Made by a program: the position numbers and the translations under genes. DNA of 9,014 nt from a virus (taxonomy: Duplodnaviria; Heunggongvirae; Uroviricota; Caudoviricetes). How positions within the stretch are numbered: position 1 is the stretch's first letter; the number at the start of each line of letters is the position of its first letter. The stretch covers positions 1 through 9,014 of the IMG/VR virus record IMGVR_UViG_3300012155_000041; one strand, 5' to 3'. The notes under the pieces are model-generated. The model ran no database searches. It saw nothing but the letters and a program-made list of their open reading frames with translations, and had not been told where the DNA came from. Of this stretch, positions 1,605 through 3,372 are shown in pieces.

Positions 1605-2347
1605 TGCCCGAAAAGCGGCACAGTACGTTAAACGTGCTGGTGGTTGCGAATACCGGTTGGCGATTATCAGGGATGTTTGGTTGCTGATTTTTTATGGGGT
1701 CTGGCTCAATAATAAAGGCAGTACTTTCACTGGGACGTCGTGCAATTGGTGTAAAACTGGAGGAAGAGAGATTCAATCAAACGGTTGGTGAAGTGCGGCA
1801 AAAATGCTGACTGGCGATATTGTTTTTTATGTTTTTATAAAAAAACAAAAACATATGGATATATTTGCATTTTTTGACAGTGTTACCTGTTGAAACCTTG
1901 CATCAGATAATTATTATTTGCGCTGGTTTTTGGGAAAGATTCTTTTACGAGGTTAATTATCTTTTCCCTGTAACCCGGAGTACTGGTGTATAGCAGTTGT
2001 AATCCTGATTGTTCAGGTTAATGATGTCGCTGCCAGCTTCACGGGAATATGACTAAGCCTTATTCGTTTAGCACTGGCGCGTTTTGCGTGGGATTAGGTT
2101 GTTGAGAAGTGTATGCCCACCCCGAACTATAATGTGCAACCTGTTATAGTTTCAGTGCTTGTTTTTTTTACAGTATCAGAATGGCGCATTGTCGAAAAGA
2201 AGTAGCAGGATTTAGCGTCGAGAGGCTGATGATGCGTCATTCTGATGCTGTTGCAGATATAATTTGAGGTGTATCCCAGTGCGGGAGTGGCCGGGAATAT
2301 TTTACGCCGAAGGTCACAACATATTGCTTATTGAGGCAGGTGATATG

Positions 2348-2371
2348 TTTCGGGAGGCACCCGACACCTCA
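2348..2371 (+). repeat. 24-nt box TTTCGGGAGGCACCCGACACCTCA, copy A (self-complementary core; candidate sRNA element)
   Basis: Identical 24-mer occurs again at 3114-3137. It contains nested complementary segments (TCGGG/CCCGA, GAGG/CCTC) and is preceded in both copies by CAGGT(G)AT. No CRISPR-like regular spacing and no ORF is conserved across the two copies. Confidence 0.6.
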
Positions 2372-2405
2372 AACCTTATAATGATAGCGTGTTCTTTTAG
2401 TCATT

Positions 2406-2431
2406 AACCGTCGTGTCAGGCGGTTTTTTTT
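2406..2431 (+). terminator. Intrinsic terminator following box copy A
   Basis: AACCG-(10-nt loop)-CGGTT followed by eight T. The stem is weaker than in copy B, but the AACCG...CAGGCGG-T(8-9) arrangement is shared by both copies. Confidence 0.45.
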
Positions 2432-2578
2432 ACGCAGCGGTATAAAAATATCATATTTAATAATTGCCAGAGAAATAAATTTGTTTGTATATTGTCGGGC
2501 ATGTGTTACTCGTGCGTGAAAAGTTCACAAAAAGTAAGAACAAAAAGATAAATTTACATAACTTGACTTGATGCGTTA

Positions 2579-2606
2579 TTGCTCCTGCATCATTTAACCG
2601 TATTAT
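2579..2606 (+). promoter_or_regulatory. Putative sigma70 promoter for the tRNA pair (TTGCTC -35, TATTAT -10), preceded by an A-rich upstream tract
   Basis: TTGCTC at 2579-2584, 16-bp spacer, TATTAT at 2601-2606, about 60 nt upstream of the tRNA-Thr 5' end. The A/T-rich tract at 2520-2560 resembles the UP/FIS regions of stable-RNA promoters. Sequence-pattern call only. Confidence 0.3.
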
Positions 2607-2667
2607 CAAAGGCGGTTCTGAGGGGGGCACCTGTTCACCGATGATATTGATTCCCTGAAGAACCAAT

Positions 2668-2743
2668 GCCGACTTAGCTCAGCAGGTAGAGCAACTGACT
2701 TGTAATCAGTAGGTCACCAGTTCGATTCCGGTAGTCGGCACCA
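2668..2743 (+). tRNA. tRNA-Thr, anticodon UGT (UGU), 76 nt with encoded CCA
   Basis: Hand-folded cloverleaf: acceptor GCCGACT/AGTCGGC, D-stem GCTC/GAGC, anticodon stem ACTGA/TCAGT with loop CTTGTAA (anticodon TGT), T-loop TTCGATT, discriminator A plus CCA. Closely resembles E. coli thrU as I recall it. Confidence 0.9.
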
Positions 2744-2746
2744 TAT

Positions 2747-2821
2747 GCGGGTATCGTATAATGGCTATTACCTCAGCCTTCCAAGCTGATGATACGGGTT
2801 CGATTCCCGTTGCCCGCTCCA
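2747..2821 (+). tRNA. tRNA-Gly, anticodon TCC (UCC), 75 nt with encoded CCA
   Basis: Hand-folded: acceptor GCGGGTA/TGCCCGC (one G-U pair), anticodon stem TCAGC/GCTGA with loop CTTCCAA (anticodon TCC), 4-nt variable loop, T-stem ACGGG/CCCGT with loop TTCGATT, then T-CCA. Very similar to E. coli glyT as I recall it; starts 3 nt after tRNA-Thr. Confidence 0.9.
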
Positions 2822-3113
2822 ACAGTAGACGAAATCTGGTTATATTAGGCACTGCACATTGATATGTGGGGCGTTTTCCTGATTCCTTACCGCGTCCTGT
2901 TCTGTAATATGTGATGCAGGTTACAGTCCAGTGCCATTTTTTTACAATAATGGCATGGTGCATTGTCGGTGGAGATTTTGTATTTCCTGGCAGGGGCCGA
3001 TGATGCACTATCCCTGTGTTGTAAAATAATACCGCAGAGGTGTTCCTCAGCGCGAGGGTGGTTTAAAGAGTCGGTTTAGCGGGAAACCACAGTATCTGCT
3101 AACGGGTCAGGTA

Positions 3114-3137
3114 TTTCGGGAGGCACCCGACACCTCA
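3114..3137 (+). repeat. 24-nt box TTTCGGGAGGCACCCGACACCTCA, copy B
   Basis: Exact second copy of the box at 2348-2371, again followed about 40 nt later by a terminator. Confidence 0.6.
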
Positions 3138-3177
3138 GTTTTACAACAATAAAAACAGCTTATATTTTGCATTGACC

Positions 3178-3204
3178 AACCGCCACACCAGGCGGTTTTT
3201 TTTT
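3178..3204 (+). terminator. Intrinsic terminator following box copy B
   Basis: Perfect 7-bp stem AACCGCC/GGCGGTT with loop ACACCA, followed by nine T (3196-3204). Confidence 0.6.
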
Positions 3205-3372
3205 ATTCACAATCCTGTTTCTTATGGCTCGCTACGGCGAGCTTTTTCATACCTGCGTCACGACTGGCGCTCATCAAATAACACCAGATAAAAGGCATTT
3301 GTGGGTGCCTTTGATGTGGTGTTGTTTTTTATGGGCCGCTGGTGGCCATTTTTTATTTACAGGAGAAAAAGT

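Follow-up and report, generated by a model that had tools for sequence, protein, structure and literature searches.

STnc100 and the PasD RNAs of enteropathogenic Escherichia coli (EPEC) have a common ancestor, and their genes are found close to Q and to those for holin and lysozyme, as concluded by Zhu, Shabalina and Storz (bioRxiv 10.64898/2026.05.13.724894). In EPEC E2348/69, PasD1 and PasD2 are RNAs of 172-173 nt whose stability was found to be Hfq-dependent by Northern blot and which have many partners in RIL-seq experiments, which ligate and sequence interacting RNAs (PMC8550237). A copy of STnc100 in enterohaemorrhagic E. coli (EHEC) is located 75 nt 3' of stx2B (PMC12370729), and the STnc100 copy near stx2B overlaps the Hfq-bound EcOnc27 (PMC12711010). 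AgvB and AsxR are anti-sRNAs (sRNA, small RNA) of 51-60 nt that are encoded at a moron site in convergent pairs, for example AsxR (EcOnc02) with EcOnc27 (Tree et al., PMC4104026). Here we describe two related units, A and B, which lie on either side of a tRNA pair in a 9,014-nt stretch of DNA from a virus of the Caudoviricetes (IMG/VR record IMGVR_UViG_3300012155_000041, positions 1 to 9,014; hereafter the window). Judged from their sequences, the two units are diverged members of the known STnc100/PasD/EcOnc27 prophage small-RNA family; they add members to that family and are not a new kind of element. The reading that we consider probable, though well short of certain, is that they are diverged paralogs encoding Hfq-type trans-acting sRNAs, with seeds in their tails and with terminators that shield the lysis genes.

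Two STnc100-family units around a tRNA pair

The original prediction had pointed to a 24-nt box, TTTCGGGAGGCACCCGACACCTCA, repeated identically on both sides of the tRNA pair and followed each time by an intrinsic terminator, and had proposed that the two copies mark phage-encoded small RNAs conserved at the RNA level. The 24-mer does occur in two exact copies on the + strand, at 2348-2371 and 3114-3137; the window contains no third copy at up to 3 mismatches, and no match was seen in dinucleotide shuffles of the window (0/200). Terminator hairpins are likewise found 3' of both boxes, at 2406-2425 (followed by U8) and 3178-3197 (followed by U9). The box is not, however, the unit of repetition. 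The real repeat measures about 315 nt, the two modules being paralogs on the + strand at 2118-2433 (A) and 2899-3206 (B); repeat seeds at a constant offset (about 770 nt) cover the stretch between about 2163 and 2431, and homologs extended the limits of the modules. Identity between A and B is 54% in a first hairpin (P-1), 53% in a second (P0), 59% in the core, 37% in the tail and 72% in the terminator. The sequences between box and terminator had been called unrelated, which is roughly correct, yet 37% identity amounts to a weak relation.

A protein-coding explanation was rejected, since there is a single 47-amino acid open reading frame (ORF) with a TTG start, at 2264-2407 in unit A, and it is not conserved. 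It is the only + strand ORF within either unit and has no counterpart in unit B, as had been foreseen, and the insertions and deletions between A and B are not multiples of three in length. A repetitive extragenic palindrome (REP)/bacterial interspersed mosaic element (BIME) or the end of an insertion sequence (IS) was also rejected, because the fold covaries and the annotated copies are in prophage late regions. Matches to the box beyond chance came from enterobacterial genomes and from viral or prophage contigs, and in all annotated records that were checked for box copies (loci L001, L242, L244, L245 and L293) the copies are in prophage late regions.

A covariance search of RNA families, which had been suggested as a check, assigned both units to STnc100 (RF02076) over the full length of the model (positions 1-206 of 206), with sub-threshold scores: unit A at 2237-2435 with 35.5 bits (E 6.6e-5) and unit B at 3005-3208 with 32.8 bits (E 3.2e-4). 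Our own covariance model, R1, was built from 71 other family members with the window units excluded, and it has exactly two matches in the window, unit A at 2264-2373 (42.6 bits, E 8.6e-9) and unit B at 3035-3139 (37.7 bits, E 1.3e-7). Among the other Rfam families searched in 2100-3300 at E up to 10, nothing credible was found besides STnc100 and the tRNAs, and no ribozyme or riboswitch. The STnc100 consensus contains CACCGGGAGGCACCCGGCACCA, so the box is the most conserved element of the family. The near-invariant family motif CCGGGAGGCACCCGGCACC, which comprises the P5 hairpin and the 3' strand of P1, has the form UCGGGAGGCACCCGACACC in the window; the two differences make up a compensatory U-A outer pair of P5, which also occurs in L068 and L074. 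Both units have the P1/P2/P4/P5 architecture with covariation, as seen with model R1, in their minimum free energy (MFE) folds and in sub-family covariation. The proposal of phage-encoded small RNAs conserved at the RNA level is thus supported by membership of the STnc100/PasD/EcOnc27 family and by a covarying + strand fold.

By pattern scan, the core is present in many enterobacterial genomes and viral contigs, the genera including Kosakonia, Enterobacter, Salmonella, Klebsiella, Raoultella, Pantoea, Erwinia and Superficieibacter, often with 2-4 copies per locus that are sometimes in tandem. A BLAST search with unit A of a phage collection and of complete E. coli genomes returned one close relative, NZ_CP196316 (94-96% identity), and a few distant ones, far fewer homologs than the pattern scans of viral contigs yielded.

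Core fold, tRNA linkage and promoters

Each unit consists, in order, of a 105-110-nt five-helix core, an unpaired U/A-rich tail of 35-41 nt and a Rho-independent terminator with 8-9 U, and measures 168 nt (unit A, 2266-2433) or 170 nt (unit B, 3037-3206) from P1 to the U-tract. The 24-nt box is the P5 hairpin plus the 3' strand of P1, preceded by the last two bases of P4, and the CAGGT(G)AT that had been noticed 5' of both boxes is the 3' strand of helix P4. When 74 diverse cores were aligned, compensatory changes were found in 12 of the 22 pairs predicted by RNAalifold. Family-wide, P1 reads NNNGGUG/CACCNNN with three covarying outer pairs, P2 reads CCCCC...GGGG with the variants CCUUUC/GAAAGG and GCGGC/GCGC, P4 covaries strongly, and P5 (CCGGG-AGGCA-CCCGG) is near-invariant; the MFE folds of units A and B give the same helices as this family model.

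In canonical members the segment after P2 is complementary to the P4 loop over 6-11 nt (L127, L011, L133, L136, L293 and about 70 other loci), and this pairing covaries, as in ACUGGAU/AUCCAGU, AAGCCACA/UGUGGCUU and AGACUGACAAA/UUUGUCAGUCU. For 74 canonical members the duplex energy was -7.7 kcal/mol with a member's own partner versus -4.1 kcal/mol with the partners of others, a result equalled in none of 5000 permutations. This contact between P3 and the P4 loop is of the pseudoknot type and is not included in the Rfam structure line used for the alignment. The window units are without it and have instead a local hairpin, P3' (GUGGCC/GGUCAC in A, GUGGUUU/AAACCAC in B; ACAGUC/GACUGU in the homolog L242b). 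For 19 non-redundant members of the sub-family to which the window units belong, the consensus fold has 82 pairs, with 93.4% of cells paired and 28 pairs changed on both sides, compared with 40-50% of cells and 6-10 such pairs in a slid-partner control. Among these members helix P-1 shows both-side changes in 5 of 9 pairs (90.6% of cells paired), and P0 has 9 compensatory pairs and many G-U pairs. Because of the G-U pairs the fold is specific to the + strand, on which 91.5% of P0 cells are paired versus 74.3% on the - strand.

That the copies are functionless, decaying remnants, left behind when a segment was duplicated or when mosaic phages recombined, is disfavoured already by this covariation, and we regard it as hardly credible. 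Lambdoid late regions are indeed mosaic, and the junction 5' of unit A differs between the window and L001/L157, as might be expected of such remnants; yet with 53-59% identity in their structured parts the two units have kept every helix through compensatory and G-U changes, and dozens of independent prophages show this arrangement with its fixed distances.

Two other kinds of RNA element were considered and rejected. P5, with its 5-bp stem and 5-nt loop, could suggest a nut/boxB-like site, but it is embedded in a larger fold and lies in a late operon (boxA was not searched), while a put-like antiterminator RNA does not fit a family whose members are seen as terminated RNAs of about 170 nt (PasD). 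Multiple cores were observed elsewhere. Loci L081, L079 and L131 have 3-4 canonical cores each, some in tandem with a spacing of about 255-270 nt, and in four loci (L248:817-1157, L259:4279-4619, L260:2549-2889 and L264:9545-9885) a very diverged second core stands directly 5' of a core of the window type. This second core has the same architecture but other helix sequences, with P1 AUGCAGUG/CACUGCAU and P5 CCGGAG-GUAA-CUCCGG, which has a GNRA loop.

The window units belong to a sub-branch with the signature P1 GAGGUG/CACCUC plus the U-A outer pair of P5, which is also carried by E. coli AH19B041, A10 (three copies) and W, by phage SerU-LTIIb (two copies) and by 47 viral contig stretches. Its additional elements are hairpin P-1, followed by CAGUGC-N-U7-8, and the long hairpin P0 of about 30 pairs. 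A same-strand tRNA ends 287-308 nt before the box in 39 of 56 sub-family units, a tRNA starts 286-328 nt after the box in 16 of the 56, and in 54 of 55 the box has a terminator within 140 nt. The distance from tRNA-Gly to the start of unit B is about 78 nt, and the end of unit B is the first terminator; unit A follows no tRNA. Between the terminator of unit A and tRNA-Thr is an AT-rich spacer of 236 nt (2432-2667), and this spacing of unit A and tRNA recurs in 16 homologous loci. The spacer contains a promoter-like TTGCCA-18-TATATT (2464-2493), from which the tRNA pair and unit B might be transcribed.

The perfect TATAAT just 5' of the unit A core had been thought capable of driving this unit. 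This is unlikely, as neither the diverged A-type homolog L242b nor the B-type copies have the hexamer. It lies 2 nt from P1, and a start about 7 nt downstream would delete most of the 5' strand of P1; moreover, the conserved RNA begins 5' of it, because P-1 and P0 precede the hexamer. A TTGACN-17/18-TAAAnn promoter whose -10 element ends 7-8 nt before P1 is found in canonical members and in PasD. Unit B has a -10-like TAAAAT (3022-3027) at the position homologous to the -10 of PasD, whereas the TATAAT of unit A is displaced by about 6-7 nt towards P1, and a promoter scan lists neither of these sites.

Feature map and genomic surroundings

The features of the two units are collected in Table 1.

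Table 1. Positions of the elements of units A and B and of the tRNA genes between them
Feature	Position	Strand	Evidence
Unit A hairpin P-1 (AACUAUAA / UUAUAGUU)	2118..2158	+	RNAalifold, 19 sub-family members
Unit A CAGUGC-N-U8 motif, after P-1	2153-2169	+	
Unit A long irregular hairpin P0, about 29-35 pairs	2167..2254	+	inverted repeat, covariation
Unit A P0 core arms	2170-2189 / 2232-2251	+	
TATAAT in P0-P1 linker, probably not a functional promoter	2258..2263	+	not conserved in L242b or B-type homologs; spacing to P1
Unit A core	2266..2370	+	Rfam STnc100, model R1, MFE fold
Unit A helices	P1 2266-2271/2365-2370, P2 2274-2286, P3' 2287-2317, P4 2318-2349, P5 2350-2364 (loop AGGCA)		
Box copy A: P5 hairpin and P1 3' strand, preceded by the final 2 nt of P4	2348..2371	+	
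Unit A U/A-rich single-stranded tail, candidate seed and Hfq site	2371..2405	+	MFE fold; PasD1 analogy
Unit A intrinsic terminator, 7-bp stem and U8	2406..2433	+	
tRNA-Thr(UGU)	2668-2743	+	
tRNA-Gly(UCC)	2747-2821	+	
Unit B hairpin P-1 (CUGUAA / UUACAG), then CAGUGC-N-U7	2899..2934	+	
Unit B long hairpin P0	2941..3026	+	inverted repeat, covariation
Unit B core	3037..3136	+	Rfam STnc100, model R1, MFE fold
Unit B helices	P1 3037-3042/3131-3136, P2 3045-3057, P3' 3058-3090, P4 3091-3115, P5 3116-3130		
Box copy B	3114..3137	+	exact 24-mer
Unit B tail, contains UUACAACAAUAAAA	3137..3177	+	
Unit B intrinsic terminator, 7-bp stem and U9	3178..3206	+	

The late-control region of a lambdoid prophage makes up the window. 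It contains, in order, the end of RusA, Q (PF06530, 251-637), an isrK/C4/ORF6N moron, unit A, the two tRNAs, unit B and two holins, and 3' of the holins an M15 endolysin, HNH, TerS and TerL. Both units are therefore in the sense strand of the late region between Q and the lysis genes, of which the holins begin at 3373. The best matches among complete E. coli genomes cover at most 74% of the window at 93% identity, which makes this a mosaic prophage.

Several further observations concern the surroundings of the units. Six bases 3' of the Q stop codon is a near-consensus promoter, TTGACC-17-TATATT (643-671), followed by isrK (678-754, 78.7 bits), which is 77 nt long and has its own terminator; c4-a1b1 targets overlap isrK, and the C4 antisense RNA is at 780-863. 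By its position, isrK looks like the short PR'-tR' transcript for a PF06530-type Q, fused to a P1-type immI (c4/ant) module. The ORF6N-domain antirepressor-like gene (916-1503) has an intrinsic terminator on its 3' side (stem 1583-1597, T-run 1598-1603) and is a moron placed between Q and the remainder of the late leader. Between unit B and the holin start at 3373 are terminator-like hairpins at 3226-3243 and 3334-3347, each with a T-run, and an imperfect 39-nt inverted repeat (3259-3297 / 3306-3344). Together with the terminator of unit B, the two hairpins mean that at least three consecutive terminators guard the lysis genes. Further downstream, an HNH endonuclease gene is immediately 5' of the P27-family TerS and TerL (5221-7958), an arrangement typical of HNH-assisted cos packaging. 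In eight other loci (L202, L081, L119, L153, L098, L115, L030 and L013) the core is followed within about 120 nt by a ribosome-binding site and an ORF; the ORFs 3' of canonical cores encode S21-like and other holins, a 233-amino acid outer-membrane-type protein, a MarR-like regulator and a lipoprotein.

With canonical members and PasD showing a sigma-70 promoter, an RNA of about 170 nt, a terminator and a holin near Q, which is a PR'-tR'-S layout, it might be supposed that the units are duplicated Q-dependent late promoters with short terminated leaders, PR'-qut-tR' as in lambda 6S RNA/StxS. We think this very unlikely, since the slot after Q is already occupied by the promoter at 643-671 and the terminated 77-nt isrK, the units have no -35 element, and 2-4 copies are possible in one late region. 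In addition, the STnc100 copy of Stx2 prophages is 3' of stx2B, at the moron site 3' of PR' and not at PR' itself, and a Q-loading site in DNA would leave the + strand-specific RNA covariation unexplained.

Proposed function and comparison with known systems

The predicted U/A-rich tail together with the 8-9-U terminator has the layout of an Hfq-binding module. The role that we consider probable for the units is that of sRNAs in which the structured core would stabilise the RNA and the copy-specific tail would carry the seed, pairing on Hfq with RNAs of the host or the phage. The terminators would stop transcripts from the upstream morons and the tRNAs 5' of the lysis genes until Q-modified polymerase reads through. 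The sub-branch has P-1, P0 and a fixed spacing to tRNAs and is without a promoter abutting P1, so its RNAs would be matured from longer transcripts. For unit B the precursor is most likely either the tRNA-Thr/tRNA-Gly transcript, of which it would be the 3' trailer, or the late transcript, with the P0 duplex as a plausible RNase III site. In our view an sRNA role and a cis role are not mutually exclusive.

A number of points weigh against trans-acting sRNAs or against the family assignment on which they are based. Neither unit reaches the Rfam gathering threshold of 47 bits, and no -35 element is recognisable in either, so that discrete RNAs of about 170 nt would need processing. Conservation in the family is highest in the core and not in the tail; seed-driven sRNAs do not usually show this, and it hints that the core has a different or a further function. 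Canonical cores also precede ORFs (holins, an outer-membrane protein, a MarR-like regulator), which fits a cis leader equally well, and tandem cores are as compatible with a cis-acting leader module as with sRNAs.

The main rival is accordingly a purely cis role in the late-operon leader, which we consider possible but not likely. The modules would be terminators or insulators that silence the lysis genes in the lysogen, P-1, P0 and the core would be signals for the processing or stability of the tRNA precursor and the late mRNA, and any free RNA would be a by-product lacking targets in trans. The fixed spacing to tRNAs on both sides would be expected of such elements, as would the three terminators between tRNA-Gly and the holin, a long P0 duplex resembling an RNase III site and the lack of an own promoter in the window units; the canonical cores that double as 5' leaders of ORFs, including holins, and the conservation of the core beyond that of the tail point the same way. 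However, the homolog PasD exists as a discrete and abundant RNA that is stabilised by Hfq and has many RIL-seq partners (PMC8550237), a terminator alone has no need of a covarying five-helix domain of 110 nt, and the tails of B-type units keep conserved single-stranded motifs. In B-type homologs, UUACAA(U/C)AAAA and CAUUGACC(AA)CCGCC recur in the tails. It is also conceivable, though in our estimate improbable, that the near-invariant core is an autonomous structured RNA domain with a function of its own, to which sRNA tails are add-ons. This core comprises P1, P2, P5 and either the P3/P4-loop pseudoknot or a five-way junction; it is present in many enterobacterial genera, also in tandem, and heads sRNAs, tRNAs and ORFs alike. 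It might bind RNA polymerase or a conserved protein of host or phage, or might serve in late-operon transcripts as a processing or tRNA-like signal.

The original prediction had suggested as a speculation, from C/A-rich motifs, that the units are anti-sRNA sponges for GcvB; this idea, which would make them similar to AgvB, was not borne out, and we give it almost no weight. The motif CACAACAT of unit A is present, at 2315-2322 rather than at 2316-2323, but it is fully base-paired, forming the 3' end of P3' and the 5' strand of P4. ACAACAA of unit B (3143-3149) is located in the unpaired tail, about 10 pairs with GcvB R1 are possible there, and several tails of the family are C/A-rich. Even so, most B-type homologs carry ACAAUAA in place of ACAACAA, and pairing was at chance level when RNAduplex was run against R1 of MG1655 GcvB with dinucleotide shuffles and a scan of all 41-nt windows of the sequence. 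Tail A gave -8.9 (shuffle mean -9.2) and tail B -15.4 (shuffle mean -15.0), the fraction of shuffles at least as good being 0.51 and 0.42, respectively, and both tails ranked near the median of all 41-nt windows (0.42-0.48). The AgvB and AsxR models (RF02702, RF02703) had no match on either strand at E up to 1 in the window and up to 10 in 2100-3300. Known anti-sRNAs, furthermore, are 51-60 nt long and are convergent partners of the EcOnc27 (STnc100-type) gene.

Prophage sRNAs of the STnc100/PasD family rewire host regulation in pathogenic E. coli, and placing both units in it extends the family to a tRNA-linked branch. Standard annotation misses both genes because their scores fall below the Rfam threshold. 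The conserved family box now has a structural explanation, and the tails are where seeds should be looked for. Paired units around phage tRNAs suggest that a single leader couples the supply of tRNAs, the output of sRNAs and the protection of the lysis genes, and a core conserved beyond any seed makes core function experimentally approachable.

The closest known relatives are STnc100/EcOnc27 (sRNA103) and PasD. With the former the window units share the P1, P2, P4 and P5 core, a variable tail, a terminator and a moron site in the sense strand; they differ in their sub-threshold scores, in P1 GAGGUG/CACCUC and the U-A outer pair of P5, in the P3' hairpin that replaces the P4-loop pairing, and in having two extra upstream hairpins and a tRNA linkage with no abutting sigma-70 promoter. 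PasD, whose homolog in EHEC is EcOnc13, likewise has the order core, tail and terminator, the site between Q and holin and about 170 nt from P1 to U-tract (168/170 in the window, 172-173 in PasD). PasD1 (NC_011601 1060260-1060432, 173 nt) scores 31.9 bits with model R1; its 5' end is exactly at the 5' strand of P1, 3' of TTGACT-18-TAAAAA, and its gene lies between Q and a class II holin. In contrast to the window units, PasD has its own promoter, a degenerate P5/box (GCGGGAGGCGCC) and the P3/P4-loop pairing (AAUGAUC/GAUCAUU in PasD1). The PasD1 seed UUGUGAG is in the tail just 5' of the terminator, and this seed, whose targets carry CUCACA, is in neither tail of the window. Hfq dependence is experimental for PasD and predicted for the window units.

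AgvB and AsxR, which are Hfq-associated, come from the same place in lambdoid prophages, namely the moron site 3' of PR'; they are RNAs of 51-60 nt convergent with the EcOnc27 (STnc100-type) gene, and no match to them in sequence or structure was found in the window. A further parallel is 3'ETS-leuZ, an sRNA sponge reportedly described by Lalaouna et al. in 2015 that is excised from a tRNA operon's 3' trailer. Unit B, too, lies in the 3' trailer that follows a tRNA pair, and its end is the terminator at which this transcript would stop; tRNA-processing nucleases could plausibly mature it. Unit B is not related to 3'ETS-leuZ in sequence, however, it is much larger and more structured, and sponge activity in unit B is conjectural. 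With lambda 6S RNA/StxS, finally, the units share the character of a short terminated RNA 5' of the lysis genes that is read through by Q-modified polymerase, but they are not next to Q, where isrK is found instead, and they are multicopy and have a conserved RNA fold.

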